DNA of 64,000 nucleotides from Candidatus Aenigmatarchaeota archaeon. Lineage in GTDB: Archaea; Aenigmatarchaeota; Aenigmatarchaeia; QMZP01. Within the stretch, counting starts at the first letter, position 1; each line of letters begins with the position of its first letter. Made by a program: the position numbers and the translations under genes. The DNA lies in contig JBDRSV010000024.1 in NCBI GenBank assembly GCA_043824495.1, positions 91,056-155,055 on the forward strand, in the 5' to 3' direction. Shown one piece after another: positions 3,010-27,342 of this stretch. Under the pieces are notes generated by a model that did no database searches, had not been told where the DNA came from, and worked only from the letters and a program-made list of their open reading frames with translations.

Positions 3010-3030
3010 TTGTCTAATTAAAGGGATATA
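3010..3030 (-). repeat. Junction motif copy a (reverse complement TATATCCCTTTAATTAGACAA)
   Basis: Read directly from the sequence. GC-rich block on the left, AT-rich r-protein operon on the right. Confidence 0.9.
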
Positions 3031-3110
3031 GAAAGAAAAAATTAGAAATGTTCAGACATATAAACCTTATAAACTATAATGCTCAATAATTGGTATAATT
3101 CGAAAGGAAA

Positions 3111-3458: not shown

Positions 3459-3459
3459 T

Positions 3460-4211: not shown

Positions 4212-4216
4212 GAGTA

Positions 4217-4561: not shown

Positions 4562-4569
4562 GAGATCAA

Positions 4570-5094: not shown

Positions 5095-5135
5095 GTTACT
5101 TTATGCTTAAATAGTTAATAATTAAGAGGTTTGAT

Positions 5136-6352: not shown

Positions 6353-6574
6353 ATGTCATTTTTAAAAGTTAGAAAACAGATAGAGAAAAAACCTATCAAG
6401 GTTGCAAGATATGATAAATTTAACAAACCAAAAAAGAGAAAATTCGGAAAAAATATTCATAGATGCGCAAAATGTAACAGAACAGGCGGGATGATAAATA
6501 AGTACGATTTACATTATTGTAGACAGTGCTTCAGAGAACAAGCAGAAAAATTAGGATTTGTAAAATATAGTTAG
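6353..6574 (+). CDS. rps14: 30S ribosomal protein S14 (zinc-binding type)
   Basis: CAKCNRTGGMINKYDLHYCRQCFRE with CxxC...CxxC. Operon position. Confidence 0.85.
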   Translation: MSFLKVRKQIEKKPIKVARYDKFNKPKKRKFGKNIHRCAKCNRTGGMINKYDLHYCRQCFREQAEKLGFVKYS

Positions 6575-6582
6575 GAGTTAAT

Positions 6583-6969
6583 ATGAGACACGATTTAATT
6601 TCAGATGCATTATGCATAATAAAAAACGCAGAATTCATTGGTAAAAAGGAGTGTAAGGTTCCTGTGTCTAAGTTAATTAAAGGTATGTTGACAATCATAA
6701 AAACCAATGAATACATTAAGGATTTCAAGTTAACACATGAAGAGAAAGGAGATTATTTTCATGTTCATCTTGCAGGTAAAATAAATGATTGTAATTCTAT
6801 TAGACCACAATACTCATTCCAAGTAAAAGACGTTGTTAAATGGGAAAAAAGATTCCTTCCAGCAAGAGAGATAGGAATTTTAATTATTACCACATCAAAG
6901 GGCATAATGGATCAAAGACAAGCAGAAAAAGAAAAATCCGGTGGTAGATTACTGGGTTATGTTTACTAG
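6583..6969 (+). CDS. rps8: 30S ribosomal protein S8
   Basis: DLISDALCIIKNAE...ITTSKGIMDQRQAEKEKSGGRLLGYVY. Confidence 0.9.
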   Translation: MRHDLISDALCIIKNAEFIGKKECKVPVSKLIKGMLTIIKTNEYIKDFKLTHEEKGDYFHVHLAGKINDCNSIRPQYSFQVKDVVKWEKRFLPAREIGILIITTSKGIMDQRQAEKEKSGGRLLGYVY

Positions 6970-6977
6970 GTGATTAT

Positions 6978-7241
6978 ATGATAACAAGCAGAGACATTAA
7001 ACATGCAGAAGAGCAAAAAAAATTGTTGATTGGAACAAAAAGTATAGTGAAATCACTAAAAATCGGGGAACTGGAAAGAGTCATTTATGCTTCTAATTGC
7101 CCAGAATCCACATTGAAGGATATAAATTATTATTTAAAATTAACTAAAACTGAAGTGGAATTATTCGATGGAAATTCTTCAAAACTAGGTGAAACCTGCG
7201 GTAAACCCTTTAATATACTTATGATCGCAATAAAGAAGTAG
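6978..7241 (+). CDS. rpl30e: 50S ribosomal protein L30e
   Basis: LLIGTKSIVKSLKIGELERVIYASNCP...GNSSKLGETCGKPFNILMIAIK. Confidence 0.8.
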   Translation: MITSRDIKHAEEQKKLLIGTKSIVKSLKIGELERVIYASNCPESTLKDINYYLKLTKTEVELFDGNSSKLGETCGKPFNILMIAIKK

Positions 7242-13083: not shown

Positions 13084-13614
13084 CTAGACACTATTCCACA
13101 ATCTCTGAATTAGTTGATTCATTGTAATCTTTTTCTGGAACAGTTCTTTTACATCATTCTTTTCAATCTGCACTCTTATCTGTGCCTTATTCTCTAAATC
13201 ATTCTTATAAGATTCAACTCTTGCAACTAACTCTGGTTTTATCGCTTCATTTTCAGCTTCTACTGCAAATTTTCTTACAAAAGAAGCATCCATAGCTAAA
13301 AGATCATTTGCAATTCGTTCTCTGTAAAGAGACTTAACCATTTTTGTTATTGTAGCTGCTTTTTCTACAGTAGCTGAATCAGATGCTTTCTGTACCACAA
13401 AAGCTTCTACACTCCCTGCACTAACAGGAACAGCTTCTTCTATACCTAAAGTATCTCTGTAAATACTCTCTTTCTGTGCAGATGTTGTAGCTTGATGTTT
13501 TATTACATCAGATGATCTTATGTCTACTAGAGCAAATCTTCCAGAAGCTTGTACAAGAGACATTGATAAAACTAACAAAATTCCAATTATCATCAAAGTT
13601 AATTTATAGTTCAT
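13084..13614 (-). CDS. Hypothetical secreted protein
   Basis: N-terminal signal/TM MNYKLTLMIIGILLVLSMSLVQA. Confidence 0.5.
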   Translation of the reverse strand: MNYKLTLMIIGILLVLSMSLVQASGRFALVDIRSSDVIKHQATTSAQKESIYRDTLGIEEAVPVSAGSVEAFVVQKASDSATVEKAATITKMVKSLYRERIANDLLAMDASFVRKFAVEAENEAIKPELVARVESYKNDLENKAQIRVQIEKNDVKELFQKKITMNQLIQRLWNSV

Positions 13615-14410
13615 TGAACCACTCCGTTAATTTTATTGAGTGTGCTGGATATGTTTTATCCACCACCAATATTTTTTTCTTCTCTAAATTCTTAAGCGCC
13701 GCTGCAAGACTAGATTTTGATATTCCCGATTTCTTTTCCAGTTCACTTCTCCTGATAACTCCTTTATTTTCTACGACTATATTTACAATCTTCTTTTCAT
13801 TCACTGATAATGTTTTTATGACCGATTCCTTTTTGGATAACCCTGGTTTCATTTTGTGTATGATTAATCCAATTCCAATGATTATGATAATACCAATAGC
13901 TGCAAACACGAATATAATTGGGTCGGTAGTCTTTGGTAGTTCCTTTTCAAATGAATATGATATTTCAATTGAGTTTATTCCTGCCCACCGAAGTTCTGTT
14001 ATATCTCCAGTTTGTATGTAAGCTGAAGGATTTGATGAAATTATTTTTGTGTTGTCAGGCATCAAAATAACAATGTTGTTATTTTGTAATCCTGTATCCA
14101 TATTGAATTTCCAGTTACCGTCTGTTTTTGATGTGAGTAGAGATGTTGTGTACAAAACAACAGCTTCTCTAGTTTCTCCAATTGACACTTCTATATAATC
14201 ATCATGCACTAGATGCAACCCGCCTCTTACTAGTACCTCATCCACATCTGCTGGGATTGGTAGACGATAAATACCTGATCCTGTTATTGTTATGCTTACT
14301 AATGTGTTTCCATTATCTTCTATGATTATGTAATATTCGGTTGCTTCTTGCGCATACACTGTCGGTATCAGCGCGAGCAATCCTATCATGATCAGCAATA
14401 CAACTTTCAT
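13604..14410 (-). CDS. Membrane-anchored protein with extracellular domain and C-terminal winged-helix domain
   Basis: Signal peptide, central TM (IIFVFAAIGIIIIIGIGLII), then IVNIVVENKGVIRRSELEKKSGISKSSLAAALKNLEKKKIL (wHTH-like). Confidence 0.55.
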   Translation of the reverse strand: MKVVLLIMIGLLALIPTVYAQEATEYYIIIEDNGNTLVSITITGSGIYRLPIPADVDEVLVRGGLHLVHDDYIEVSIGETREAVVLYTTSLLTSKTDGNWKFNMDTGLQNNNIVILMPDNTKIISSNPSAYIQTGDITELRWAGINSIEISYSFEKELPKTTDPIIFVFAAIGIIIIIGIGLIIHKMKPGLSKKESVIKTLSVNEKKIVNIVVENKGVIRRSELEKKSGISKSSLAAALKNLEKKKILVVDKTYPAHSIKLTEWFNEL

Positions 14411-14475
14411 ACATGAAAGTTAATTTTTGCCTACTTAAATATGACCTGGGGGAAGGGTTCCCCAGGTATATAATT

Positions 14476-15171
14476 TTACCAGTAAAGACCTGGTCCGAAT
14501 GGGCCGATTGGTACTTCTATTGGTTTATTTGGTTTAGGTTGTGGTGTGTTCCACTCTTCAGGGAACCCTGGTCCTATACCACAGTCCCCGCATACTGCTA
14601 TTCGTGGGAATACTTTGTATTCACCGTATGAATAGTCTCCGTAGATATCCATGGCTTTCCAGTGATTTCCACTGTACCAACCAAAGAAGAGCTCATCTTC
14701 ATAGAAGCCAGCGAATTTGTGGTTCTCATAAATTCCCCATACTTTGACTCCATTATTATCTTCACCAACAAAATATCCATTTGCGTATGTTCCCCATATA
14801 ACATTTTCTCCGTCATGTGTCCATAGAATAAATCTATGTGGTCCTGTGTAGTAGGGCATTGTTTCTCCTGTTGTATCAGAAGATCCTGTACTTGGAGCTT
14901 CCATTTTGTCTACTGTAGCTTCGTAACTTGAAGGTATAGAAGCTGTAGCTTCTGTTTTAAACTCTTCTAGCTTATCTGCTACATTCGTTTTCACGATTTC
15001 TATATGCTCTGTGTTCACGCTGTTAGCGAATCCAAATCCCCTCTTCATATCATTCAGTTTCTGAATAAGAGGTTCATAATCCTCGCTTGAAACAGCTTGT
15101 GTTGAGGCAATTCCTAGTGCCAATACTGACACGAAAACAATTGCCATAATATATTTGGTGTCCATTTTCAC
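14476..15171 (-). CDS. Hypothetical secreted protein, Tyr/Gly/Trp-rich repeats
   Basis: Signal peptide MKMDTKYIMAIVFVSVLALGIAS, with repeated GxY/WG motifs. Confidence 0.5.
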   Translation of the reverse strand: MKMDTKYIMAIVFVSVLALGIASTQAVSSEDYEPLIQKLNDMKRGFGFANSVNTEHIEIVKTNVADKLEEFKTEATASIPSSYEATVDKMEAPSTGSSDTTGETMPYYTGPHRFILWTHDGENVIWGTYANGYFVGEDNNGVKVWGIYENHKFAGFYEDELFFGWYSGNHWKAMDIYGDYSYGEYKVFPRIAVCGDCGIGPGFPEEWNTPQPKPNKPIEVPIGPFGPGLYW

Positions 15172-15240: not shown

Positions 15241-15264
15241 TATATCCCTCTAATTAGACAATAT
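15241..15264 (+). repeat. Junction motif copy b (TATATCCCTCTAATTAGACAATAT)
   Basis: Read directly from the sequence. AT-rich on the left, GC-richer block I2 on the right. Confidence 0.9.
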
Positions 15265-15267
15265 AAA

Positions 15268-15315: not shown

Positions 15316-16422
15316 TCATCTCAGCTTCAAAAACGCTATATGAGGTGCAGGCAGCCACTTGACTAACGATTCAGTCCAAGAGAAAGACCATTTCAGCTTC
15401 TTCTTCATCTCGTGAACCTTCATACATTTCACCGAGACTAGATTCCAGTTCAGGATGCCGAAAGCTGTGCCCAAGAGACCACCGACAAGCATAACGAAGC
15501 CCTGTCCTACAAGATCCATTCCGGCGGAGGAAACGAGAAATTTGTAAGCGAGAAATCCGCCCAAGACTCCGTCAACTGCACACAACACTCTCTGGAAACA
15601 GTGAACCATCTTGATGATGTTCCAGATAAACTGACCGATAAATGTGAGGACCACCGAGATGCACACCAAGACAACGAAAATGACGGTCAGTGCAGTGAGA
15701 ATTGGGTACCAGACAGAAAGTAGAAGCAAACTGAAGAGAATGTATCCCATCGCGTTGAGATACCCGAGTTTTATTTCTCGGCGGTTCTTCTCCTCAAGGA
15801 AATACCTCCTTCTTAACACACCGATGTCGTATTTTTGGTCCGTGTGTCTGCTTATTCCGAGAGCCTCCCCAATACTCTTATAGTTGTACAAAACGTCTTC
15901 CCCGCTAGCGTCTTTCTTATCGACCATCATGAAAGGATAGAAGAACCTTCCGCGATCACGACTTCCAACAAAAGCGAGGAAAGAAAGAACGCCGGAAAAG
16001 ATCACAACACAGGCACCAGAGAGCGCCAACAGAAGAATGCTGCTGAGAGCGAGTTGAAGGATGTTCAGTGTTTCAGCATCTGCGAAAAGACCGGAAAATA
16101 TGTGATGTGCTGGCCACAAGCCGAGCACAAGACTCGGAAAAAGGAACGGGTGTGGCTTCGAGCATAACCAGTCCTTGGCTTTTCCGTAGTTGTCTCTGAT
16201 ATAAAACGGCCAAGTTCCGATATCATCCAACATCTCTCCGAGCATCACTTGGATCGCTTTGGCCACCTCACGGAGGTCGTAACCAAAATAACCAGCTGCT
16301 CCGCCGGCCAGGAAAGCAGCAACCCACATGTACAACTTGTCCGGCATCAGCCACATGGCAGTTGCACAGAACACGATGCCTCCAATGAAGCATCCGATTC
16401 CGATCTTCATCCAATCTTTCAT
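15316..16422 (-). CDS. Hypothetical polytopic membrane protein
   Basis: 368 aa with multiple hydrophobic helices. No family recognised. Confidence 0.6.
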   Translation of the reverse strand: MKDWMKIGIGCFIGGIVFCATAMWLMPDKLYMWVAAFLAGGAAGYFGYDLREVAKAIQVMLGEMLDDIGTWPFYIRDNYGKAKDWLCSKPHPFLFPSLVLGLWPAHHIFSGLFADAETLNILQLALSSILLLALSGACVVIFSGVLSFLAFVGSRDRGRFFYPFMMVDKKDASGEDVLYNYKSIGEALGISRHTDQKYDIGVLRRRYFLEEKNRREIKLGYLNAMGYILFSLLLLSVWYPILTALTVIFVVLVCISVVLTFIGQFIWNIIKMVHCFQRVLCAVDGVLGGFLAYKFLVSSAGMDLVGQGFVMLVGGLLGTAFGILNWNLVSVKCMKVHEMKKKLKWSFSWTESLVKWLPAPHIAFLKLR

Positions 16423-16489
16423 GGCGAAAATCTCCTTCTCGTTGTATTTCTTTGTTTATAGTTATCGTCCTAGAATTAATTCAAAACAA

Positions 16490-17041
16490 TCATATCTGCA
16501 AAGGTTCAAGCAGATACATCAGACTTCGGTCTCGTAATTCTGTCCTCTTATAAGGAGGGAGATCTATGAGACAAAGACTGGAAATACTCACGTGCATGGT
16601 TTGATACTTGGTTTCGTCTGCTTGGTACATTCCCGTAAAGATTATATTATTCAGGACAAACCCGGAAACTACTGTCCAGATCCAGAATGCCATCCATCCA
16701 TCGTACAAGAAGACGCTGGCAATCGCTGAAATGATTGCACCCACTGCGAGAACACCTACCTCAAAGAGAAGCATCGTAAAGATATCTCCCACGGGGTCGT
16801 TTTTGTCCTCTTCCCACCAATCCTCCATGACGAGTTCGTGGATAATCATGTCAATGAGATTCTGCCTGTTCTGCATTTTCTCGTGGTAGGCTATGAAACG
16901 AGTTGGTTGACGAATGTTGTGCCAGATGATCAATCCAATTGGCACCCAGATGACTGCTGTAGTGACAAGCAGCCAGAGAACTACTCTAGTTTCCATGTCC
17001 CCTCCAGGATTGATTGTTAGAAAAAATACTAGTATAATCAC
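16490..17041 (-). CDS. Hypothetical membrane protein
   Basis: 183 aa with about 4 TM helices and a GTG start at 17039-17041. Confidence 0.5.
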   Translation of the reverse strand: MIILVFFLTINPGGDMETRVVLWLLVTTAVIWVPIGLIIWHNIRQPTRFIAYHEKMQNRQNLIDMIIHELVMEDWWEEDKNDPVGDIFTMLLFEVGVLAVGAIISAIASVFLYDGWMAFWIWTVVSGFVLNNIIFTGMYQADETKYQTMHVSISSLCLIDLPPYKRTELRDRSLMYLLEPLQI

Positions 17042-17221
17042 TCTCGTTAATTGACATTTCTGTCTTTCGTTGTCGTAGAGTATTGATTCCTAAATTACAG
17101 ATGATGACTTTACCTCGAACAAGAATCTTGTGCCAGGTGCTAAAAGTTGTCAGCGATGATAAATGTGGAACATGATGCATAGAATTTAACCTAAAATTTT
17201 ATAAACCTATACAAAACCTTT

Positions 17222-17244
17222 TTATACCTCTTAATTGACAATAT
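17222..17244 (+). repeat. Junction motif copy c, divergent (TTATACCTCTTAATTGACAATAT)
   Basis: 18 of 22 positions match copy b in my ungapped alignment. Lies 5 nt upstream of ATG 17250. Confidence 0.65.
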
Positions 17245-17249
17245 ATAGT

Positions 17250-17639
17250 ATGAAGAAAAAAGCAAAGAGGACCACAAAGAAAACAGTGAAAAAACCAGTC
17301 AAGAAAATAAAAATAGAAAAGAGAGTAACACCAAAACCAAAAAAAGAAGAGAAAATTAAATGTCCTTATTGTAAGAGTTCTAGAGTGGTTTGGAGAGGAT
17401 ATAGATACAACGAAAAGACTGACAAGCACTTAAGATTATGTAACAACTGTAAGAGAAAGTTCACAAAAAGAGACGAGTTCTTCCGTATGAGATTCGGTGA
17501 AGAAGAGATAAAAAGAGCTGTGGAATTATACAAGAAAGGTTATTCTTCTGCAGAAGTAGTTCAGAACCTGAAAAGAAATCATGGAATAAAGGTTTCAAGA
17601 TGGACTGTGATCTGTTGGCATAAGAGATACACTAAGTAA
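17250..17639 (+). CDS. Zinc-ribbon plus HTH protein, IS1 InsA-like / transposase N-terminal-domain-like, without a catalytic domain
   Basis: Lys-rich N-terminus, CPYCKS...LCNNCKRKF (CxxC...CxxC), then GYSSAEVVQNLKRNHGIKVSRWTVICWHKRY (HTH-like). AT-rich backbone composition. Confidence 0.6.
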   Translation: MKKKAKRTTKKTVKKPVKKIKIEKRVTPKPKKEEKIKCPYCKSSRVVWRGYRYNEKTDKHLRLCNNCKRKFTKRDEFFRMRFGEEEIKRAVELYKKGYSSAEVVQNLKRNHGIKVSRWTVICWHKRYTK

Positions 17640-17659: not shown

Positions 17660-17681
17660 TATATCCCTTTAAATGGACAAT
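17660..17681 (+). repeat. Junction motif copy d (TATATCCCTTTAAATGGACAAT)
   Basis: Read directly from the sequence. A T-run lies upstream and GC-rich block I3 lies downstream. Confidence 0.9.
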
Positions 17682-17686
17682 GCAAA

Positions 17687-17723
17687 GGGAGAGGTGCAGT
17701 ATTCCACATCTGCACACTCTCCC
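17687..17723 (-). terminator. Imperfect hairpin downstream of the T9SS-domain gene
   Basis: GGGAGAGGTGCAG (17687-17699) pairs with CTGCACACTCTCCC (17710-17723), with mismatches. Confidence 0.5.
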
Positions 17724-17754
17724 ACCACATCACCTTTTCAGGCTTTGCAGATTT

Positions 17755-19629
17755 TTACTTCAGAAGCGTCATCTTTTTGCTTTCCGTCAGGCTGGCCGTT
17801 TGCAACCGATAGAAGTACATACCGGACGCGACGGCCTTACCGTAGCGGTCGGTTCCGTCCCAGCTAACCTGATGTGTTCCTTCGGGCTGGGACCCGTTGA
17901 CGAGAGTGGCAACGTTGCGGCCGAGGATATCAAAGACCTCTAGCTTTACGTCTCCTCCCTGAGTCAACTGATAGGAAATCACGGTTCCGGCGTTGAAGGG
18001 GTTCGGGTAGTTCTGGTTCAAGCTGAATGATGTAGGAACGGCTCCTGTTGTCTTGTACGCGATGTTCAGCGTACCTAATGGAATCCACCCAGCCGGAACT
18101 GTCCGGCTGTTGTTGATCTCGTCAGCTATCGTTTTGGCCAACTCGTGATCGCCGAATGGATCGTCGATCAAGTTGTCGCAGTATGTTACCGCCTGTGACA
18201 CAGTCGCGCCGTCATCGCTAATCACAGCGGTTTGTGCCAGTTTGCCGCTAGCGACATTGAGTAGCAAAGCCATGAGTTGCTGTCTGGCTCGATCAATCAT
18301 GTCAACGCTGCCCTTGAGGTTCAGCAACGTCTTCGCGACTTCGAGCTTGTCTTCACAAAGATCCGACACGGGTGGATCGTACACGACGACCTCGTTCACT
18401 GCGTTCGAGTTGAAGTGGCCCGCGATGAGGTCGAGATAGCTACACAGAGTTGAAGCATCGATTTGCGCGCGGCCATTCCCACCAGTAGCGACGCCGACGT
18501 TGTGTTTCCAGAAGCCGATTGTTCGTTGTTCTCCAGCGTCTGACGGGCATCCCAATTCAAAGTCGATTTGGGCTGTGCCTTCACAATCGAGATCGACGGA
18601 CTGTTCGCTCGGAAATGCCGTATACCCGAGGGGGCCAACAAATGATACCATGTAGCTGGCCTCACCCGGGAGGTTCTCGAAATCGTAGTAACCGGCTTCA
18701 TCAGTCACAGCCGATTCTACAAGTACACCGGTGGCATCGAAGACATCAATCGTGATACCAAGAACAGAGCAGTCAGCACTCAGTGTGCCCTCAATTGCGG
18801 CGAAGCATTCTTCCTCTCCACCTCCGCATGCACACGTTCCATCTTCCACCTCAATGGCGGTGATGGTGTTGTCGTAGGCGTCCTTTGACCAGACGACGGT
18901 CAACGGCGCGAAGTTGATGACGTCGCATTCGAGATCCTCATCCCGACCACCGATCGTCGCGAAGTCACTGAGATACACGCCCGTTGTCTTGTCAATGCGA
19001 ACGATGTTGCCCAGACCATCGCGCCCGATGTAAAGGGTGTTCCCCGTCCCAACAATAACACCACTTATTCGATCCAGTGTATTGCCGGCCGCGTCGGTCG
19101 GATACAACGTTCCCAGATAGGCTCCCGAGCCCGCATCGAAGTGGTCAATGCCCGTTGATACATCATCGGAAACCCAGACACTGTTATCCGTCGCATCAAA
19201 GCCAATGCCGTCGATGAAACAGAAGCCCGGTGTTACCACAGAAAACTGGAAAGTGGCTACGCCGGTGGTGGGATCGATGAGATACACGTTCGCCGGACAT
19301 TCGTTGTCACTGCCTCCCCAGATCATGTTGCGCGTATTGTCCCATGCAATAGCGCCGATCGAAACTGGTGTGCCATCCGGTTTGAAAATGGAAACGAAGC
19401 CGAGATCGGTGCCGAATTTGTCTATCGAGTAGAGAGTTGGGTCGAAAGAGTTGGTGTAGAAAATCACACCATCACATCCAACTGCAACACCGATACCGAC
19501 ACCAGACGAGCTTGGAACAGGAACTGTGACGTTCGTGATGACATCACCGGGAGCTGCCATTGACGTAGCGGTGATAGCGGTGAAGAGGCAGAACACAACA
19601 AGCGCAGTGAAAGCTGTGAGACGCTTCAT
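17755..19629 (-). CDS. Secreted beta-propeller/CarboxypepD_reg-like protein with T9SS (Por) C-terminal sorting domain
   Basis: Signal peptide MKRLTAFTALVVFCLFTAITATSMA. The C-terminal NYPNPFNAGTVISYQL...VFDILGRNVATLV...GMYFYRLQT...KKMTLLK is the classic T9SS CTD pattern. GC-rich. Confidence 0.85.
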   Translation of the reverse strand: MKRLTAFTALVVFCLFTAITATSMAAPGDVITNVTVPVPSSSGVGIGVAVGCDGVIFYTNSFDPTLYSIDKFGTDLGFVSIFKPDGTPVSIGAIAWDNTRNMIWGGSDNECPANVYLIDPTTGVATFQFSVVTPGFCFIDGIGFDATDNSVWVSDDVSTGIDHFDAGSGAYLGTLYPTDAAGNTLDRISGVIVGTGNTLYIGRDGLGNIVRIDKTTGVYLSDFATIGGRDEDLECDVINFAPLTVVWSKDAYDNTITAIEVEDGTCACGGGEEECFAAIEGTLSADCSVLGITIDVFDATGVLVESAVTDEAGYYDFENLPGEASYMVSFVGPLGYTAFPSEQSVDLDCEGTAQIDFELGCPSDAGEQRTIGFWKHNVGVATGGNGRAQIDASTLCSYLDLIAGHFNSNAVNEVVVYDPPVSDLCEDKLEVAKTLLNLKGSVDMIDRARQQLMALLLNVASGKLAQTAVISDDGATVSQAVTYCDNLIDDPFGDHELAKTIADEINNSRTVPAGWIPLGTLNIAYKTTGAVPTSFSLNQNYPNPFNAGTVISYQLTQGGDVKLEVFDILGRNVATLVNGSQPEGTHQVSWDGTDRYGKAVASGMYFYRLQTASLTESKKMTLLK

Positions 19630-20175
19630 GGATTTTTATTCCTTAGGTTGTGAGGGAAATATGACCCTCCGGGTTTGTTTTTCGATTAGTTTCTGATTGT
19701 TTGTCGTTTACCACGTTTCCAAGTTAAGGTCCGCGAATCGCTATTTTCATTGGCATCCTCTCTTTGGGTTAATGTTGTCCGCACAAATTGCGGGATTAAA
19801 AGAAGGAAAGACACAAAAGATAGAGTATGTCTTATGTAGACTGAGAGTAAAATCATTCGAAGAATAAAGCTAATACTATTAAAACAAACATGCATGTTTG
19901 ATGTGTTTCTTTTCATGTTTTTTGTGTTAGCCAATGTACCGTTTCTATGGTTAATTGGATTGATTGAGTTGCAATCAATACAAATTTAAATGATGTTCGA
20001 ATGAGTAGCATGATTTAAATTGTATACAAAAATTGACGTTGATTCATCGTCGTTTTTTTGTGTTTTGGTATTTTTTTTGATTCTAGCTTGTCGCTTTTGT
20101 CAAGTCTTTAACTCAAGTATATAGCTTACAGGTATTTAAATGTTTTCTAACACATTTTTTTTAATTTTCTTTCTT

Positions 20176-20197
20176 TTATCCCTTTAAATAGACATAT
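20176..20197 (+). repeat. Junction motif copy e (TTATCCCTTTAAATAGACATAT)
   Basis: Read directly from the sequence. A T-run lies upstream and GC-rich block I4 lies downstream. Confidence 0.85.
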
Positions 20198-20206
20198 AAA
20201 AAGGCA

Positions 20207-20259
20207 AACGGGCGAAGATTTGGAGCCAAACTCTTCTTGATGTCTCACCTCCGCCCGTT
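20207..20259 (-). terminator. Compound hairpin next to motif copy e
   Basis: AACGGGCG (20207-20214) pairs with CGCCCGTT (20252-20259), with an inner GAAGATTTGG/CCAAACTCTTC stem. On the minus strand it is followed by TGCCTTTTTATAT. Confidence 0.4.
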
Positions 20260-21168
20260 AAATGCCGTTGTCCGGCCTATCAATTTACCCGCCGGTTAGG
20301 TGAGCACATGTGCTCGTGTCCCAGAGGCGCATGTTTTCATGCCCTCCTTTGCCGGGTTCTTACGCGAACGTGCTGCTTGACCGAGATAATGTAGCTGCCA
20401 GATTCCCCACAACCTTGTTATTGGTGGAACCGCGACAGCGGTCGGTCCAGTCCGTATGCATCGTAGCCTCACTTGGTGAAGGACTGCGAATCAAGAGACG
20501 GGGATTCAGAAGAATCCCCGTCTCACGAGTTGACGGTTGGTACGAGATATATCAAAGGAAGTCTTTATGCCATTGGGTGCATTCCGAAACCTTTAGCCTC
20601 GTCCGTCTCCGAGGGATCCTATCAAAGGTTTCATAAAGGAAATTTCATGGACCTCGTTACGATAGGATCGGAGTGGCGTAAAGCCACGGCCAGAACCTCG
20701 AGGTCCCCCAGGATAAGATCACCGTTTGAATATGAGTCAGCGGTGAACGTAAGGGTGCTGGCGATTCTTCTTCGCATTCAAACCCTCCAGGGAACACTTC
20801 GTAATTTGTGTTGTCAGCGGCTGTTTACGAATCGGCGGTGATCGTTTCCACCACGGTACATGTCGGCGTGGTGACAAACGATGAAGAAGCGACTTCAAAA
20901 CGCGCGCGGCCATTGCTCGGCGGCGGCGAATGAGCCCAGGCATTGACGGCGGTCGCGGCGGTATTCATCCAGGAAGCGACCACTGGTGACCCGCGAAGGG
21001 TCGGTAATCGGTTCATAGAGCAAGCTCCATTTCTTCCGATAGGAAAATTCCAATCCACTTTACAAACTCTCGCCTAAACAGAAAGTATTGTCACATAACT
21101 TTCCGTCGCAAAAGAGAATGTGAAGAGGAAACAATTTCGTACACCTCGTCAAGAGATCGTCTCCATTT

Positions 21169-21534
21169 TCACCCTACATGGGCTAGGCGAGAGGATAGAC
21201 CAGTTGCTGATAGAGATGTAGAGGGAACCGTTTTCATCCGAAGATCTCTCCCGTCCCTCAGGGAGTAAGTTGCTCGTCCACCAGGTTCCCATACCAAGGG
21301 AGCTGGCAACTCTGCCATTCTCTCTATCCGACTCTCTGTTGTCATCGCCACTACGGCAACAACTCTTAGCCTATCCGGCGTAGGATTATGAGAGTGTAGA
21401 GCGAATTCCTCGTTCCATGTTTGTTCTGTATCGCTGCCTGTTATGATATCCAATCCTGAAAACGGGATTGGGTCAGCGGTATAAACAATACAGGAACCAT
21501 ATATGAGGTAGCAGAGTGTCATGATTCCCAGCAT
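21169..21534 (-). CDS. Possible small secreted protein
   Basis: AAGGAG lies 5 nt upstream of the ATG, with a hydrophobic N-terminus MLGIMTLCYLIYGSCIVYTA. It is the only ORF in block I4 with a good RBS. Confidence 0.4.
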   Translation of the reverse strand: MLGIMTLCYLIYGSCIVYTADPIPFSGLDIITGSDTEQTWNEEFALHSHNPTPDRLRVVAVVAMTTESRIERMAELPAPLVWEPGGRATYSLRDGRDLRMKTVPSTSLSATGLSSRLAHVG

Positions 21535-23161
21535 GACAACTCCTTACAAGGGCACATGGTTATATGGTAAATGCTCTCTCCGTCAACAAATCGTGCCCTC
21601 TAAGACATGTTTAGGAGAGAAAGGCGACAACTCATGAAGTGTTCTTCAGGTGGACCCGTCATCACTGTTATTGCGTTGACGGCCTTCTCCTTGACCCGGA
21701 CTTAGACGTGTGGCTTTCGGTGTTTTCGCGGCGCGTTTCTGCTGTTTTGGACTACGCTTCTTGTTGCTCGGAAGCCCGTCTCGGGCACCACCGTGACACG
21801 TCATGAAAGACCTCGTTTGTGAGGAGTTCAGTTCAAGCTTGTGCTGGAACTGTTTGGAACGAGGAATTGTTACTCTTTACGGCGAGCGATTGTGTGTCAT
21901 CGTAACTCCTTGACAATGGTTTCCACAAGCTCCAAAATAAAAAAGAGCTGTTGTTTTCAAATTCAGTTGGGAATCTCCTAGCCCGCCCCCAGAACTGACT
22001 AGAGGAGATCCCCAACTTTTGTACAGCGCACCCCGTGCATTGTTTTCAGGGTGGAGGGGCCCGGCGGTCAACTGAGCCCCTCACTGGACGAATCGGTCAC
22101 AGATAACATGTTACGCATTACCGACTCGAAATCTATGCCACGGCAGTAGATGGAAGTGGTCGCATCTACCGCCGGGCTTCACGACGTTGTGCATTTTGTC
22201 GCCTTCAGCCTTACACAACGCCGTTATTTCCCCACCCACAGGGAATTTAATATCGCGGGGCCTCACTCAGGAGACCCCGCTTCCGTTGGGTTTACTACCG
22301 AATTGTTCGGTAGCGTTCTTCCACGACAGACATACGCACATGCGCACGTCTTCATTTCTTTGAGGACCTACTCATCTCCGATTTGAGTAGGTCCTCGGCT
22401 CCCCACAACCCCCCGATCAGCACCGGGAATTTTTTTGAGGGGAAATCTGAGCAGATATCTCAGACTCCCCTCCCGTCAGGTCTACCGACCAGCACTTCCG
22501 GTTGGACGCCGGAAATTCTTTATTAGAAGGGGTTTCCCCTCTCCAAGAAACCCCTTCCTCTTCGGCGTAGCGCGTCTCACGCGCTTTAGTGCATCGATCC
22601 CCACCGATCAGGTAAAACCCTTGGATGGTTCTCTCCCCGAACCCCCACTGAAATATTTTGGAACCCCTCATAGATCCCCGTAATCTCCGAGAGGTTCCGA
22701 CAGCAGCACCATACAAATGGGACTACCGTGACAATCAAAAATACCGGAATCCACCGCGTCAGAAGAGGATTCCGGTATTCTACATCGCTGGTTGTGTTGA
22801 GAGCTTACCCCTTACTGGTCTTAACGAGTATGTTACGTCGGACTTCCTTTCACCAAATATACGGGTCACTACAGAATACCCGATCGATCCGCTTTGTTGT
22901 CTTAATCTCACCAGCGGATAGTGACGCGGTTACAGCCAGCGATTTCGCCTTTATACAACAGGCGTCTCCAAACCAAAATGGAAATTGGAGTTGTTGCTTC
23001 CACACTTCCGGATTTCCCCCTCCGGTAAACTCTAAGGTACTGATAGGTGACCGCTCGTGTTTCTTGTGTTCGCAATTGCCGATTGCATCAAGCTCTTCGT
23101 AGATCTAGATCTGGAAGTAATTAGCAAACGATCACAATAAACAGACAACTGGGAGAAGTCC

Positions 23162-23788
23162 ATTTCTACCAGTACCTGGATTTTCTAACCCTCGGGAGGT
23201 GTGTACAAGCCTAAGCAGAGTTTGTCCTGTTGAATTGGCCCCGAGGGTAAGTGGCCTTCCGGAAGAGAATTGGTGAGGTCCTGTAACAGAACTCTATCTC
23301 ATTCCGGGGTAAAGCTCAAGGCACAGCCAGAAGGAGACGTATTACCTTGAGAAGTTGGTCTCCCGAGTGAAGAAATTCGAGATGTCCCATCGATGAAGGA
23401 CATCTCTTCTCCACTCGGGCTCATTCGTCAGCCTGGAAGGAGAAGTGCAAGAGTTTTCGCGCAATTACTCTCTCTCCTCCCGGGAAATTTATGACCTCCT
23501 GGTCCGAAACTTGTGCCGCGGTAAACCAGAAGGCGTAACTGCTAGGCTATGTGACGGCCACAGCAGTAGGGATCGAATCCAATACACGAAAGACAGCTAA
23601 GACTAACTCTGTCTCGTGTGGTTTACGAGTAAAATTCAGAAATCGATAGTCTTCGGCCTCTTCGAGGGAAACTGCTTAAGCGCTTAATTGCAGCGCGTTA
23701 TGTTTCCTGGTAAGTGACCTGTTCTCTAGGATGTACCGAAGGCTAACTTAGTTAGTCTCGGGAAATTCGCGTGTGATTGGTAGAAATG
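23162..23788. ncRNA. Candidate ~630-nt structured RNA (family unknown, strand undetermined)
   Basis: CATTTCTACCA (23162-23172) is complementary to TGGTAGAAATG (23778-23788). Internal helices include CCCTCGGG/CCCGAGGG and GAGATGTCC/GGACATCTC (23379-23406). No ORF. Confidence 0.35.
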
Positions 23789-23949
23789 AAACATGAAATG
23801 TCCTTATATATAAATGTAATTTAATTACTTAAATAGGTTGATGGATAGCTTTAAAAAGGTACTATTAAAATTATTTTTTTGTGAAGGGATCGATATACCA
23901 AGTGCTTCCAAAAATAAAGAGTAGAAAAAAATAAGAGTGAAAAAAGCAA

Positions 23950-25992
23950 TTAACCAATGAATTCAACCTTTTCAAAACTGCCGTTTTCTTCAAATTTGTC
24001 TAATGTTGATACGAAAATTATTACTTTTTTCTTGTCTTCTTTACAGATTCTAGCTGCTTGTTGTATTACCATGTTCTTGATTCTGTCTGAAGCACATATG
24101 AAATGATTGCTTTGTTTCAAGTCCTGATAAATTAATTCTCTATCATCTGTGTCTTCAACCATTATAGTTAATTCTTTTCCATCGTTCTGTAAATATATTC
24201 TGTTACCTTCTTGTTCACTCTTCCATCCGACTTCATTAAAGGTCTGCATGATACCTGTTAAGTTCAATTCTTTTTTCTGTGTTGAGTTACCAAATTTATT
24301 AGTGAAAACTTTCTCTCCTATATTTGTAAGAAAGTAATAACATAATCTATTCTTCTTAACTTTAGCATCAGCTGAATCAACTAATCCGTTATAAGTTAAG
24401 TTCTCAACCTTTTTCTTGAAAGTTGCTCCTGACATTTTTACATTTGTGTATATCTGAGATGTGTAAGCAGCACTACCATTACCAATGGTTTTCATCATAG
24501 CCCACTCTTGTTCTCCTAAATCCTCAATTGGAAGAGAGTTTATGAATTCTTCTTCCTTTACTGGAGGAGGTGAGTAGCTATCTTCTTTAGCTATTCTGTC
24601 TTTCATGTGCTCTCTGATATCATCATCTACAATAGAGTTCTTAACCAGTTTAGCCTTGTCGAATTTTACAAGGAATGGTTCTGGGAAATTCATAGAGTGT
24701 CTCAAAAGCATGAAACCGTGACCTACTGGCAGTCTTCTTAGATACTTACCTTCTTCTCTAGAATCAAGACCAAGCATGTTTGAAGCGTCTTGAATATCTG
24801 AAGTATGTTTTGTATCCAAACCTAGATTCATGTATATATGAGTAGAAGTATTACCAATTGCTGGATATGAAACTAAAGATGGATGCTGATCTATGTATAT
24901 CATTCCTAATCCTAATTCTCTAATTTCTCTAAATATTAATTCTACAACGGTTTCTGATCCTAATTTGGCAGATTTTTCTCTGTTAAGAACATGATGAGCT
25001 TCTTCCATCACTATACATCCTATGACTTCTTCTTTTCCGCCTTCTACGAGTAACCAATCTCTTATCCACTGTAGAATTATTTCTATGATAAAGCTCTTAT
25101 CATTAACATCAAGAGCATCTAATTCTAGAATTGTTACCTTTCCTTTCTTGAAGAAATCAGATGGTTTTATACCTTCTACACAGTCGAATATATGACCTGT
25201 GTCTTTGAAGCATAATGACTCTAATGGTCTTTCAGCTGTTGCTAACCAGTTTCTTTCTCTTGTTGGCAGCTTACCTTCTGCATATTCTGCTAAGTAATCT
25301 TTAAGGTCAAACAGTGTTGGATTTTTCTTTTCCTTGAAAACTCCATCTAAAGCTTTCAAGATTACGTGTCTTCCACCACCGAGTAACCAGTAAGAATGAT
25401 CGAATATTGAAGAGAACTCTTTCATCCACTGTGTTTGACTAATTCCTTTAGGACCTTTCAGTGGATTGAATTTGAAAGGAGCTACGCCTCTTCCGATTGT
25501 GTAAATATCTATTTTGTCTTTAATTTTAGTTGATAGTAAATCTTTATAATTTCTCTTAGAGAAATCAAATATCAAAACAGGAATATCCTTTTCTGCTAAT
25601 TCTTCAATTAAGTTATATGAAATATTTGTTTTACCATAACCAGATGAACCAAATATTCCTATATGTGTAAGTAAGTTTTTCTCTTCTAGCATGATTGGAT
25701 ATAAACCCTTTCTTCCGTATAAAACATCACCTAATCTAATTGTTCCTTTAGCTGCTGCTTCTTGGCTAGGAGGTTCCATTAGTACTGTATCTCTTAGATC
25801 TTCATCAGCAGAAACTGCGGCTTTTATAACATCAAGTAGTTCGAAGATTCTTTGTCTTACATCTTCGTTTCCAACTAAGTAAGCTTTACTTAATCTCAAA
25901 GCTTTGTCTTTACCCAAGATTGGAGTAAGCTTCTTAATTTCATCTGCAATTAGTTTTTCTTGAATATTAATCATTTGTACCACCCAAATCAT
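23950..25992 (-). CDS. HerA/DUF87-type P-loop ATPase with C-terminal winged-helix-like region
   Basis: Walker A GIFGSSGYGKTN and Walker B-like GCIVMEEAHHV. 680 aa. Confidence 0.7.
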   Translation of the reverse strand: MIWVVQMINIQEKLIADEIKKLTPILGKDKALRLSKAYLVGNEDVRQRIFELLDVIKAAVSADEDLRDTVLMEPPSQEAAAKGTIRLGDVLYGRKGLYPIMLEEKNLLTHIGIFGSSGYGKTNISYNLIEELAEKDIPVLIFDFSKRNYKDLLSTKIKDKIDIYTIGRGVAPFKFNPLKGPKGISQTQWMKEFSSIFDHSYWLLGGGRHVILKALDGVFKEKKNPTLFDLKDYLAEYAEGKLPTRERNWLATAERPLESLCFKDTGHIFDCVEGIKPSDFFKKGKVTILELDALDVNDKSFIIEIILQWIRDWLLVEGGKEEVIGCIVMEEAHHVLNREKSAKLGSETVVELIFREIRELGLGMIYIDQHPSLVSYPAIGNTSTHIYMNLGLDTKHTSDIQDASNMLGLDSREEGKYLRRLPVGHGFMLLRHSMNFPEPFLVKFDKAKLVKNSIVDDDIREHMKDRIAKEDSYSPPPVKEEEFINSLPIEDLGEQEWAMMKTIGNGSAAYTSQIYTNVKMSGATFKKKVENLTYNGLVDSADAKVKKNRLCYYFLTNIGEKVFTNKFGNSTQKKELNLTGIMQTFNEVGWKSEQEGNRIYLQNDGKELTIMVEDTDDRELIYQDLKQSNHFICASDRIKNMVIQQAARICKEDKKKVIIFVSTLDKFEENGSFEKVEFIG

Positions 25993-26515
25993 TAAAGATC
26001 TTTAAGATCTTATTTTCTGTTTGTAGTTGTTCCAGGAGCTCTCTTAGCTCTGTTTTTAATTCTAATCCATCTCTCCAAAAAAGAATATTTTCTTGTCTTT
26101 TTTCTTTTCTGAGAATAGAAACATCAAGTTTGAAATTTCTCTTTTCATCGATGTCTGTGATATGATTCATCATATCGTCTTTTTCTTCGATGTCTTCTTC
26201 AATTTCTTTTAAGAATGTTTTGTGGAGAACTTCTCTTTCTTTCATAGTGTTTTCAATTTCACTAACTCTTATTTGCAAGAATTCTACTTTATCGAATAAG
26301 CTTCCAATAACTAGAGGATCATCTCTTTTTAGAGCAGTGAGTTTACTTTCTTCAAATCTTGGCATTGATCTTTTCTTAATAATTTGAACTTCTCTAACTT
26401 CGGGTTCATCTAGATCAATCTCATCATGTCTAATTAAAGACTCACGTCTTCTCTTTTTTGTAATGTCTTCATACTCGTCAAGAGTTTTATAATAGGGTTC
26501 CATTAATCTGTCCAT
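25967..26515 (-). CDS. Coiled-coil protein, overlaps the start of the ATPase gene
   Basis: 182 aa, highly charged with a heptad-like E/K/L-rich sequence. Confidence 0.5.
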   Translation of the reverse strand: MDRLMEPYYKTLDEYEDITKKRRRESLIRHDEIDLDEPEVREVQIIKKRSMPRFEESKLTALKRDDPLVIGSLFDKVEFLQIRVSEIENTMKEREVLHKTFLKEIEEDIEEKDDMMNHITDIDEKRNFKLDVSILRKEKRQENILFWRDGLELKTELRELLEQLQTENKILKIFNDLGGTND

Positions 26516-27342
26516 AATAATTACCTCGAGTGACCATTTGTCACTATCTGATAGTTAAAATATGTATAAAGGGTTTATAAAGCTTTCGGTTAGCTTGCAG
26601 TGTGCTGTTTTTGAGCGTAAAAATCGTGTACGAAAGACAATTTTCTTGGGTTTCCATGACTTTTGTGCCAACGAAAGACATATTCTGTCTTTAGTAAGAG
26701 AGTTAATAAAGATTTCTGTCTCGCGCCTTATAAAGGATCCGAATTGGATATTTTATATAGTAATTAATTACTATTGTAGAGATCTTTATTTACTTAAGTC
26801 TTTACATAAATAATTCTCAAATACTTTTTGTCTTTGCTAAAGTTTAATGCAGATTTTCCTCGAAACTTTTGTGGAAATTCTTGAAATCAAATGTCTTCTA
26901 GTTTTGCTAGAGCTTTTGAAGACATGGAAACTCTCATAAAACCCCAACCGAAAAGTATTTAAACCCTTTGACTATAATTTCACTATAGATTAGTGACAAC
27001 AAATTAAGAAATGTCTGAGTTATGTGTGGTGTCAAATCCTACATAACTATCTTTACAATCTACGCAACTTTGAATAAAAAGAATTTCGGGTTAAACTCGC
27101 AATTCTAAACTCAGAGAAATTGAGTGCACAGGAATTTAGGCGCGGCCTAAAATCCCCATAAGAAATCCAAAAAAATGACACGCTTTGTGTCAAAAAATGT
27201 GATTTGAGGGGGTTTGATTTCCTTAGCTCTGAGTATCTACTTTTCGAAAACCACGAAGACTCGCGTAACAATTCTAAGCAATAAATATAGTGAAATTCCA
27301 GACTTCTGTAGACTTTCGCTGTCTGACATAGAAATTAACAAG

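Follow-up and report, generated by a model that had tools for sequence, protein, structure and literature searches.

The 64,000-nt stretch of Aenigmatarchaeota DNA analysed here (the window) contains a 2.5-kb unit, at 17660-20174, whose only gene encodes a 624-aa protein ending in a T9SS C-terminal sorting domain (CTD). The unit is bordered on both sides by copies of a 27-nt site, with a small Zn-ribbon/HTH gene on one side and a GC-rich block devoid of ORFs on the other. The features are:

17221-17247, plus strand: weak (16.5-bit) copy of the site, immediately upstream of the Zn-ribbon gene
17250-17639, plus strand: gene for a Zn-ribbon and HTH protein, an IS6/IS1-type DNA-binding module without the catalytic domain
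17660-17686, plus strand: site copy TATATCCCTTTAAATGGACAATGCAAA, proximal border of the T9SS unit, 21 nt past the stop of the Zn-ribbon gene
17687-17723, no strand: GC-rich hairpin GGGAGAGGTGCAG..CTGCACACTCTCCC, terminator-like for the T9SS gene, 31 nt past its stop codon
17755-19629, minus strand: T9SS-CTD protein gene, 624 aa, an intact ORF with an ATG start (GC 0.54, GC3 0.61)
17770-18009, minus strand: type A T9SS C-terminal sorting domain, aa 541-620 (TIGR04183, PF18962)
18112-18519, minus strand: helical domain, aa ~371-506 (homolog comparison and model)
18550-18804, minus strand: SdrD_B / CarboxypepD_reg-like (Ig-like) beta-sandwich, aa ~276-360 (profile match and model)
18850-19542, minus strand: N-terminal beta-propeller, aa ~30-260 (AlphaFold model and Foldseek)
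19552-19629, minus strand: Sec-type signal peptide, aa 1-26, read off the sequence, with a likely cleavage between SMA and AP
19850-20174, no strand: tail of the unit, AT-rich and upstream of the T9SS gene (GC ~0.2-0.3, boundary approximate)
20175-20201, plus strand: site copy TTTATCCCTTTAAATAGACATATAAAA, far border of the T9SS unit, from which the ORF-less block starts; 2515 nt separate it from the first copy
20202-23780, no strand: ORF-less GC-rich block of 3.6 kb, filling a syntenic variable gap
23950-25992, minus strand: HerA/DUF87 ATPase gene, the conserved far border of the gap

A surface-protein gene with a type A T9SS sorting domain

This ORF represents a genuine, intact gene whose product is a surface protein made up of a Sec signal, a beta-propeller, an Ig-like sandwich, a helical domain and a type A T9SS-CTD. 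The signal peptide (MKRLTAFTALVVFCLFTAITATSMA, with AP following the cleavage point) reads as MKR, a hydrophobic core and SMA before the A, and residues 2-20 are helical in the AlphaFold model of the protein (mean pLDDT 79.6). The modelled propeller, in which confidence drops past about residue 200, was matched by Foldseek to YVTN, NHL and YWTD propellers and to glutaminyl cyclase, all at a probability of 1.0. The middle sandwich passes the cut-off for SdrD_B (34.3 bits; cut-off 29.7), while CarboxypepD_reg scores 23.6 bits, under its cut-off of 32.3, so the latter label stands for a fold-level resemblance and not for a curated match. Both curated cut-offs for the sorting domain are passed (TIGR04183, 51.5 bits against 23; PF18962, 30.4 bits against 27), and the C-terminal tail reads NYPNPFN ... 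GMYFYRL ... KKMTLLK, which is textbook type A. An earlier sequence-only reading of this DNA had proposed a Sec signal, propeller-like repeats, a CarboxypepD_reg-like segment and a T9SS domain; the signal, the propeller and the sorting domain are borne out, and the remaining segment keeps its resemblance in fold but takes SdrD_B as its curated match.

The protein is built like the type A T9SS cargo of FCB-group bacteria, in which a Sec signal is combined with a variable N-terminal domain. Its module of SdrD_B sandwich, helical domain and CTD (Por_Secre_tail) shows 50-62% identity to Zixibacteria-type proteins, and the N-terminal propeller is common only to one homolog, P0002. Unlike such cargo, the gene is carried on an archaeal chromosome, a setting in which one expects no outer membrane and no T9SS. 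So far, the T9SS has been described only in the FCB superphylum (for example PMC12398890), and none of its machinery (PorK/L/M/N, SprA/Sov, PorU/V) was found among the scanned window ORFs, which were mainly the larger, non-ribosomal ones. With both the outer membrane and the T9SS presumably absent from an archaeon, the CTD would not work as a sorting signal there. At most, Sec export of the product is conceivable, the CTD then remaining as a spare Ig-like domain, and the gene is most likely a passenger in the archaeon.

A 27-nt site bordering every GC-rich block of the window

The T9SS unit starts straight after one copy of the lineage-specific 27-nt site, TATATCCCTTTAAATAGACAATATAAA. Six copies with at most three mismatches are found in the window, where 0.15 would be expected, and none of 100 shuffles reached six; these strong copies have PWM scores of 32-39 bits. 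All six lie at the edge of a GC-rich block and are directed into it, GC rising at each of them from 0.28-0.39 in the 300 nt upstream to 0.48-0.57 downstream, and the site borders every GC-rich block of the window, always pointing inward. Genes are present in five of the six blocks, in every case on the opposite strand from the site. The remaining blocks and the copies that border them are:

24-2947, plus strand: block A genes, including an M32 carboxypeptidase (GC3 0.61); the far end runs off the window
3004-3030, minus strand: site copy bordering block A
15241-15267, plus strand: site copy bordering block B1
15316-17041, opposite strand from its site copy: block B1, with two genes for membrane proteins (ORF list)
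~27.1-36.3 kb, all plus strand: block C, at least eight genes (ORF list)
36282-36308, minus strand: site copy bordering block C
56967-56993, plus strand: site copy bordering block D
57064-59030, all minus strand: block D, three genes (ORF list)

The copies at 15241, 17221 (weak), 17660 and 20175 form a same-orientation series, and the solitary blocks have no second site or half-site of 8 bits or more at their far ends. Position 17660, where the sequence-only reading had its region begin, is the first base of a site copy. Genes inside any one block are all on the same strand, and inspection by eye of the ORF lists and the sequence revealed no truncated genes at the visible block ends (the far end of block A being beyond the window). 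Within the site is a TATA-like TTTAAATA core, flanked by ATCCC and GACA as against the host promoter pattern AAARCTTTATAAAYCC; an oligo-T tract precedes the site, and an A-run and a hairpin often follow it.

At the T9SS gene, the hairpin that follows the site has a 13-bp stem and a 10-nt loop, and the surrounding 70-nt window folds at -27.7 kcal/mol, with none of 43 control windows of the same block as stable. The T-run after it (TTTGCATTGT) is weak, and because of this tail and the 10-nt loop the terminator consensus scan made no call at this position. Across the site copies there is a tendency for a hairpin to follow (mean z -0.83, p 0.01), those at blocks A, B1 and C being unexceptional, and an A-run and then a hairpin tend to trail the site even where there is no downstream gene. 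That the gene retains its bacterial terminator is plausible, a view weakened by the hairpins at gene-less sites.

The ORF-less block carries many perfect 10-13-bp hairpins, and these palindromes drive its MFE z of about -1.4 to -1.6 on both strands (window-wise mean), a modest value for a conserved large structured RNA. There is no period-3 signal, and reassigning any one stop codon fails to open a long frame, so that pseudogene remnants are unlikely. Rfam gave no matches in the window at gathering thresholds, nor in 19500-24100 at an E value of up to 1, and ARAGORN predicted zero tRNA genes in the window. The syntenic gaps of the relatives compared have no common sequence except the site, which would still be compatible with a fast-evolving RNA, and contig pairs of the same species are identical across the gap, with no polymorphism seen between them.

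The 27-nt site is also present in further Aenigmatarchaeota MAGs. A homolog of the Zn-ribbon/HTH protein, the fold of which is like the site-binding domains of transposases and terminases, adjoins the site in eight of the nine distinct loci that have one (the window, L005, L016, L024, L026, L028, L030 and L033). Five relatives' loci (L024, L026, L028, L030 and L033) share a module consisting of the Zn-HTH gene, the site, an ORF-poor variable gap and the HerA-like ATPase. Locus L024 holds an array of five same-orientation sites (2333, 3304, 4327, 5480 and 6236), spaced 0.8-1.15 kb apart. Where site copies elsewhere bear ORFs, the cargo mostly has the same orientation by our own count, L005 being a clear exception. 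As the site also adjoins native-looking genes, following native tRNA genes in L024 and lying by a same-strand lipoprotein gene in L005, it could be an ordinary regulatory or terminator-associated element.

How the blocks may have come to lie beside the site

The arrangement suggests a site- and orientation-specific process that would set whole transcription units beside the 27-nt site, and the transposase-derived Zn-ribbon/HTH protein is predicted to be the likely site-binding factor. A different origin of the link, which we regard as rather unlikely, is that the site is a native element of convergent intergenic regions, either terminator-proximal or a bidirectional promoter/operator, bound by the Zn-HTH protein. 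Foreign DNA would then enter by unspecific recombination and survive where it is insulated, and the link would reflect selection and not dedicated integration. The TATA-like TTTAAATA core fits such a native role, as does the position of the site 42-90 nt upstream of divergent host genes (S17 at 3111, 14476..15171 and 36391) and, likewise, of the Zn-HTH genes in L005, L016 and L033. The tRNA genes that precede it in L024, and its setting between an oligo-T tract and a frequent A-run and hairpin, like a bidirectional terminator zone, point the same way. No recombinase, site-adjacent transposase catalytic domain or reverse transcriptase was found in the scanned window ORFs and the relatives' loci, and the lack of a recombinase would also be consistent with unspecific entry. 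However, all six strong copies in the window border GC-rich blocks, cargo almost always lies in the same orientation with respect to the site, two copies bracket the T9SS unit where the collinear locus L026 has one, and the array in L024 is a regular one of five copies. Moreover, the promoters of the host's housekeeping genes differ from the site (AAARCTTTATAAAYCC), and random insertion followed by selection does not predict visible block ends at which no truncated gene was seen.

Capture through RNA, in which the blocks would be cDNA made from complete transcripts of bacterial origin or of other archaea, appears improbable. The 3' hairpin and U-tail of a transcript would anneal to the A-run of the site and a nick would prime reverse transcription in a LINE/R2-like manner, which would fix both the junction and the antisense orientation. 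Such a route would account for blocks that are all unidirectional, with complete visible ends and starts comprising a full first gene and a short leader, and for the A-run and hairpin found consistently at the junction. In L024, a tRNA-like 3' end in reverse complement forms the start of one unit and directly abuts the A-run, and in L005 the site copies have a group II intron at a distance of 2.8 kb. On the other hand, no reverse transcriptase or RVT domain is present in the scanned window ORFs or the relatives' gene lists, no 5'-truncated units were observed, the AT-rich tail at 19850-20174 is unexpected in a bacterial transcript, and the hairpin statistic is modest. The same comparison can be made with TPRT (LINE processed pseudogenes, R2), in which a homopolymer run of the target also meets the 3' end of the captured unit and whole transcription units are in fixed orientation, whereas here no reverse transcriptase and no 5' truncations were found. 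We know of no TPRT of cellular RNAs in archaea.

Among known mobile systems, integron cassettes, described in archaea by Ghaly et al. 2022 (PMC9668308), are similar in that foreign genes lie at a fixed orientation beside a short recurring site, in same-orientation arrays (of four sites in the window and five in L024), on a platform at a conserved chromosomal position, and with cargo that is cross-domain and of a composition off that of the host. They differ in that the conserved 27-mer here lies outside the hairpin and the units, of 0.8-9 kb, can be multi-gene and have their own upstream region. A classical integron was rejected as no IntI and no attC were found: the larger window ORFs and the Pfam lists of L026-L034 include no IntI or other tyrosine recombinase, the window has zero attC candidates (RYYYAAC/GTTRRRY boxes) versus 1.1 in shuffles, and the 27-mer has no such boxes. 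Insertion at attTn7 (guided by TnsD/TniQ) and by the Xer-exploiting IMEX/pdif systems also proceeds at a fixed position and in one orientation through a recognised sequence, producing islands that grow by successive insertions, with a small Zn-finger/HTH protein encoded nearby; in contrast, the present blocks have neither transposon ends nor a transposase, and the 27-nt site occurs many times per genome. A dif site is 28 bp long, with two 11-bp inverted arms that are palindromic at their inner ends and separated by a 6-bp spacer. The 27-nt site was rejected as a dif/Xer site of this 11-6-11 type, since its TTATAT/ATATAA hexamers are outermost, 15 nt apart, and its arms match poorly the dif of P. 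abyssi (ATTGGATATAA-TCGGCC-TTATATCTAAA; PMC2958812). Ced/Ted DNA import relies on HerA/VirB4-like ATPases, and the DUF87 ATPase beside the variable region has CedD as its best specific NCBIfam match; the match is weak, however (61 bits against a cut-off of 600), genes for CedA-like membrane proteins or for pilins did not turn up, and the similarity may be just that of the shared HerA/FtsK fold.

Bacterial ancestry of the gene and its archaeal setting

The search with the 624-aa protein returned 211 homologs, and every named one besides the query's own record is from Zixibacteria, which supports descent of the gene from FCB-group bacteria. The nearest full-length homolog, P0002 (45% identity across 98% of the query), has a bacterial context, with RuvA/B/C, RecJ, UvrA and another Por_Secre_tail gene as neighbours, and P0005 (60% identity) is on a contig binned as Zixibacteria. 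The closest homologs are just 45-62% identical, so they do not pin down the actual donor. The codon usage of the gene (GC3 0.61, compared with 0.24 for the host) is anti-correlated with that of the host (RSCU r -0.39), and its tetranucleotide correlation is 0.02-0.06 with the host versus 0.56-0.67 with blocks A, C and D.

The surroundings are a genuine Aenigmatarchaeota chromosome. The MAG is labelled Aenigmatarchaeota at NCBI, and the window carries archaeal genes for S17, L14, S4e, L5, S14, S8, RpoD, S12, S7, L7Ae, S28e and ArgRS. Locus L026 is collinear with the window (identities of 64% for ArgRS, 74% for Zn-HTH, 68% for DUF87 and 70% for MIPS), has one site copy and lacks the T9SS gene, the 2.5-kb single-gene unit as a whole being missing from this relative. 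In an independent assembly of SRR26275509 (Logan), one contig spans the window from 17094 to ~65148, is 100% identical across the 12.5 kb compared, and has the same junctions at the T9SS unit, the ORF-less block and blocks C and D. Such agreement between assemblies speaks against an assembly or binning chimera, in which pieces of a co-occurring bacterial genome were fused to an archaeal contig, and we regard this reading as very improbable. A chimera would explain the abrupt GC shifts at block edges and a share of GC-rich blocks (~40% of the window) that is high for a DPANN genome, but it would need twelve separate events, with one join per block at the same AT-rich 27-nt archaeal site, in blocks that are flanked on both sides by host-like AT-rich DNA and in an architecture that recurs with the site in other Aenigmatarchaeota MAGs and metagenomes. 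The chance is negligible that the gene belongs to an old, vertically inherited archaeal family with a superficial likeness to T9SS cargo, for although FlgD_ig / Por_Secre_tail is an Ig-like sandwich of a generic kind, this reading is already contradicted by a query that is the lone archaeal label among 211 homologs, by the absence of the gene from L026 and by its anti-correlated codon usage.

An archaeal chromosome, a relative without the gene and donor-like codons together indicate a recent cross-domain transfer, and neither contaminating DNA nor an adapted archaeal gene. The sequence-only reading had already placed an unadapted gene of bacterial origin in archaeal surroundings, and all three points agree with the present results; it had named archaeal homologs with the same gene context as the evidence that would count against it, and none were found among the 211. 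Its view of the block as raw bacterial DNA, if this is taken to mean an arbitrary fragment or contamination, does not agree with unidirectional blocks that look complete at their visible ends and each abut the same 27-nt site in the same orientation, nor with a T9SS unit that is a precise insertion relative to L026. Nor is a single donor lineage, the possibility that it had wanted checked, upheld, as the best homolog of the 300-aa protein of block D is native in a Micrarchaeota MAG and the ORF-less block is a syntenic variable region found in all relatives.

The locus is thus probably the product of a recent transfer of a Zixibacteria-type gene together with site- and orientation-specific placement of whole units. 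More tentatively, and with some doubt on our part, the site (TATATCCCTYTAAWTRGACA and the A-run), the Zn-ribbon/HTH binder and the HerA/CedD-like translocase could constitute an undescribed gene-capture platform in Aenigmatarchaeota/DPANN. Whole foreign units from bacteria and other archaea would go in with a single fixed orientation, both at a conserved chromosomal hot spot, giving arrays, and at dispersed site copies, and the T9SS gene would be a freshly caught cassette.

To our knowledge, the uptake of bacterial genes by archaea is largely unexplained apart from a few archaeal integrons. The locus provides a concrete, testable case: a cross-domain transfer, recent and unadapted, whose borders are known to single-base precision, with a 27-nt site that recurs at six blocks within 64 kb and a conserved pair of proteins encoded next to it. 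For annotation, a 'T9SS sorting domain protein' met with in the MAG of an archaeon is not necessarily contamination, and does not imply an archaeal T9SS. Should the site prove to direct insertion, this would account for the gain of surface proteins by genome-reduced symbionts, and would provide a sequence tag for freshly acquired genes in DPANN archaea.

The T9SS gene and its ancestry

The minus-strand ORF at 17755..19629 (the T9SS gene) encodes a 624-aa protein that the sequence-only reading had described as a T9SS-sorted secreted protein. That description is correct, since domain scores, an AlphaFold model (54 homologs as input, mean pLDDT 79.6), Foldseek matches and a hairpin agree with it, and the sorting domain, signal helix and propeller were all recovered. 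NCBIfam TIGR04183 (T9SS type A sorting domain, here CTD) scored 51.5 bits at aa 541-620 (cut-off 23), and Pfam cut-offs were passed by Por_Secre_tail (30.4 vs 27), SdrD_B (34.3 vs 29.7) and FlgD_ig. The proposed CarboxypepD_reg-like segment stands as a beta-sandwich at aa 276-360, but CarboxypepD_reg itself is below its Pfam cut-off (23.6 vs 32.3). The N-terminal part matched YVTN, NHL and YWTD propellers and glutaminyl cyclase in Foldseek.

Table. The T9SS gene and its product (aa rows from the AlphaFold model).
17755..19629, minus strand, T9SS gene, ORF of 624 aa
aa 2-20, signal helix
about aa 30-260, beta-propeller, confidence dropping past about aa 200
aa 276-360, beta-sandwich
aa 371-506, helical domain
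aa 549-622, C-terminal beta-sandwich
17687-17723, 13-bp GC-rich hairpin, 31 nt past the stop codon

The hairpin is more stable than all 43 control windows of the same block; a terminator consensus scan did not call it, and the T-run behind it is weak.

The gene is of bacterial ancestry, as had been anticipated. Searching 5.8 billion proteins yielded 211 homologs, among which, the query's own NCBI record aside (MFH1978528.1, 'Candidatus Aenigmatarchaeota archaeon', contig 171,815 bp), all named ones are Zixibacteria. Most share only the sandwich, helical and CTD module, with 50–62% identity and about 56% query coverage. The one homolog that spans the full length is P0002 (45% identity), and its gene neighbors (RuvA/B/C, RecJ, UvrA, YebC and a second Por_Secre_tail gene) form a bacterial context. 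P0005 (60% identity) lies on a contig binned as Zixibacteria. No near-identical donor sequence was found among these homologs. The composition of the gene is unadapted to the host: GC3 is 0.61 vs 0.24 in host genes, relative synonymous codon usage shows a negative correlation with that of the host (r = -0.39), and composition-normalised tetranucleotide usage correlates at r 0.02–0.06 with host DNA and 0.56–0.67 with the GC-rich blocks A, C and D, compared with 0.89 between two host segments.

The archaeal chromosome and the insertion

The host is archaeal. Ribosomal-protein genes of archaeal type (S17, L14, S4e, L5, S14, S8, S12, S7, L7Ae and S28e), RpoD, ArgRS and an intein-containing inositol-1-phosphate synthase (MIPS) lie in a low-GC background of about 33%. 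The analysis covered 64 kb of the 171.8-kb contig and, in each relative, at most about 20 kb surrounding the gene. The independent Logan assembly of SRR26275509 includes a 48-kb contig corresponding to window positions 17094 to about 65148, with 100% identity across the 12.5 kb compared, and the borders of four GC-rich blocks are therefore crossed by a second assembly. This contig ends at 17094, in an AT-rich spacer between block B1 and a weak copy of the site described below; contigs L009, L020, L029 and L032 likewise stop within a few hundred bases of a site copy, and such ends may reflect graph branching at these loci.

The relative L026 (ERZ27293400), which comes from a different sample, and the window are collinear: both have, in order, the ribosomal genes, ArgRS (64% identity), a small Zn-ribbon gene (74%), a DUF87 ATPase (68%) and its 182-aa partner (61%), MIPS and PadR. 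L026 does not carry the T9SS gene, which is thus a precise insertion relative to this genome. Three host-like secreted-protein genes (13084-15171, GC 0.33–0.41) form with block B1 a 4.3-kb insertion between ArgRS and the Zn-ribbon + HTH (Zn-HTH) gene, which lie 33 nt apart in L026. The myo-inositol-1-phosphate synthase gene (47035-49560, minus strand) is split by an intein that bears a LAGLIDADG endonuclease domain, and its L026 ortholog (360 aa) is intein-free. A Cas4-like PD-(D/E)XK nuclease (36936-37589) lies ~630 nt away from the 36308 copy of the site. Behind it come an Eco57I/MmeI-like restriction-modification fusion (39330-42056) and then a DDE_Tnp_1 transposase (44028-45038), and the collinear relative has none of the three.

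A 27-nt site at the edges of GC-rich blocks

The sequence TATCCCTTTAAATRGACA occurs six times at <=3 mismatches in the window (0.15 expected; 0 of 100 shuffles reach six), and alignment of the copies gave the conserved element TATATCCCTTTAAATAGACAATATAAA. A weight-matrix scan of the window found six strong copies and one weak one.

Table. Site copies and the ORF-less block.
3004-3030, minus strand, site copy, 32-39 bits
15241-15267, plus strand, site copy, 32-39 bits
17221-17247, plus strand, weak site copy, 16.5 bits
17660-17686, plus strand, site copy, 32-39 bits
20175-20201, plus strand, site copy, 32-39 bits
20202-23780, ORF-less block adjoining the T9SS unit, 3.6 kb, ~49% GC (genome 33%)
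36282-36308, minus strand, site copy, 32-39 bits
56967-56993, plus strand, site copy, 32-39 bits

At all six strong copies GC rises from 0.28–0.39 in the 300 nt upstream to 0.48–0.57 downstream, and the association of site and GC-rich blocks is consistent and has a single orientation: A, B1, T9SS, ORF-less, C and D each have exactly one copy, at one edge and directed inwards. Genes within blocks always lie on the strand opposite to the site (three in A, two in B1, one in T9SS, at least eight in C, three in D). Two site copies, at 17660 and 20175, enclose the T9SS gene and are 2515 nt apart; L026 has one copy in this place. The block had been taken for raw bacterial DNA. This reading is not supported: the T9SS unit is a precise insertion relative to L026, and by eye the blocks start with an intact first gene plus short leader and show no truncated genes at their visible ends (the far end of block A is outside the window).

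Nor do all blocks share one donor lineage, a point that the sequence-only reading had proposed to check. Homologs of the 300-aa protein of block D (genes at 57064-59030), whose sequence pattern had at first hinted at a possible outer-membrane beta-barrel, form about 18 clusters. The best homolog (53% identity) is in a Micrarchaeota MAG (L037, 5370-6419), where the gene has native composition, no site copy and native archaeal neighbors (PolD, PurP, split transketolase, TYW3); a single bacterial donor for all blocks is therefore not tenable, and block D suggests archaeon-to-archaeon transfer. That MAG has a similar NCBI accession and locus-tag series. Block A includes an M32 carboxypeptidase gene. 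The last gene of block C encodes an FHA-domain protein; the remaining block C proteins scanned had no significant Pfam match, and no convincing homolog of its 663-aa protein was found in 1.84 billion cluster representatives. At the left edge of block C, 54-nt inverted repeats (26538-26591 and 26946-26999, 74% complementary) surround 354 nt of non-coding DNA, and one arm holds the conserved promoter-like TATAAAGGGTTTATAAAGCTTT, also present in L026. Stop codons interrupt every frame of the ORF-less block, and no single stop-codon reassignment opens an ORF; the block shows neither a period-3 signal nor an Rfam match, and contains many perfect 10-13-bp hairpins (e.g., 20494-20525, 22365-22393, 22740-22780 and 23378-23406).

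The conserved module and proposed capture

In exact-pattern scans the site turned up on four contigs of archaeal genomes (two labelled Aenigmatarchaeota), on 15 metagenome contigs and on no viral contig; several further matches lie within ORFs and look like chance. Typically an oligo-T tract precedes the site, and an A-run, in many cases a GC-rich hairpin of unique sequence, and an opposite-strand gene come after it. This hairpin is a tendency that does not hold everywhere: across 26 copies, z averaged -0.83 relative to downstream windows (Wilcoxon p = 0.01), and at 9 of them it was among the most stable tenth.

The Zn-HTH protein is an IS6/IS1-like DNA-binding module. Among 5.8 billion proteins it has just 30 homologs, which are about 95-100 aa long and encoded on DPANN-labelled or unlabelled contigs. 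In each relative fetched, a site lies 8-44 nt behind the Zn-HTH gene and is directed away from it; next come 1.3-3.6 kb poor in ORFs and without sequence in common between genomes, and then, in convergent orientation, a DUF87/HerA ATPase and its partner of 182-234 aa. The ORF-less block occupies this syntenic gap. The DPANN trio of Zn-HTH gene, variable region and ATPase with partner is seen in the window (17250-17639 and 23950-26515), L026, L028, L030 and L033; the ATPase matches CedD best, weakly, and the partner is of no known family. In L024 (SMTZ1_10011072, 2004-7200) the Zn-HTH gene also follows ArgRS, and behind it five same-orientation copies (2333, 3304, 4327, 5480 and 6236) are spaced 0.8–1.15 kb apart, with GC going up past each and down ahead of the next. 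The intervening units encode, always on the opposite strand, tRNAs, a membrane protein and a lipoprotein; others are without an ORF. Divergent back-to-back pairs, 13-14 nt apart with GC-rich DNA on either side, occur in L007 (4259/4273) and L014 (1792/1805). An uncultured archaeon contig (L005, 4288-4579) has group II intron RNA domains ~2.8 kb from two site copies (RF02012, 63 bits; RF00029, 39.3 bits, just below the gathering score of 40). In L012 (4222-6096) a 624-aa protein with PASTA domains, a bacterial peptidoglycan-binding module, is encoded beside a site copy on the opposite strand and could be another instance of bacterial-type cargo.

The site was compared with several known elements. 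It does not resemble the promoters that the host has upstream of housekeeping genes, AAARCTTTATAAAYCC; it lacks the RYYYAAC/GTTRRRY boxes of attC (0 candidates vs 1.1 in shuffles), and comparison with P. abyssi dif (PMC2958812) ruled out a dif-type 11-6-11 site. Neither IntI nor another recombinase was found among the ORFs scanned in the window.

The favoured reading of the arrangement is the capture of whole transcription units by a site- and orientation-specific process, with the Zn-HTH protein as the likely recogniser. Such a process would work like an integron or an attTn7-type hot spot, yet the tests for membership of either were negative. Alternatively, the site is an ordinary terminator or promoter element and its association with blocks reflects the survival of insulated insertions, an unlikely reading that keeps some weight. 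RNA-mediated capture is improbable. An assembly chimera, given the borders spanned by the Logan contig, is very improbable, and a vertically inherited archaeal family, with Zixibacteria as the named homologs, can practically be dismissed.

T9SS is known only from the FCB superphylum (e.g., PMC12398890), and the CTD would lack cognate machinery in an archaeon; for this reason the product would undergo Sec export at most, and the T9SS gene is probably a passenger.
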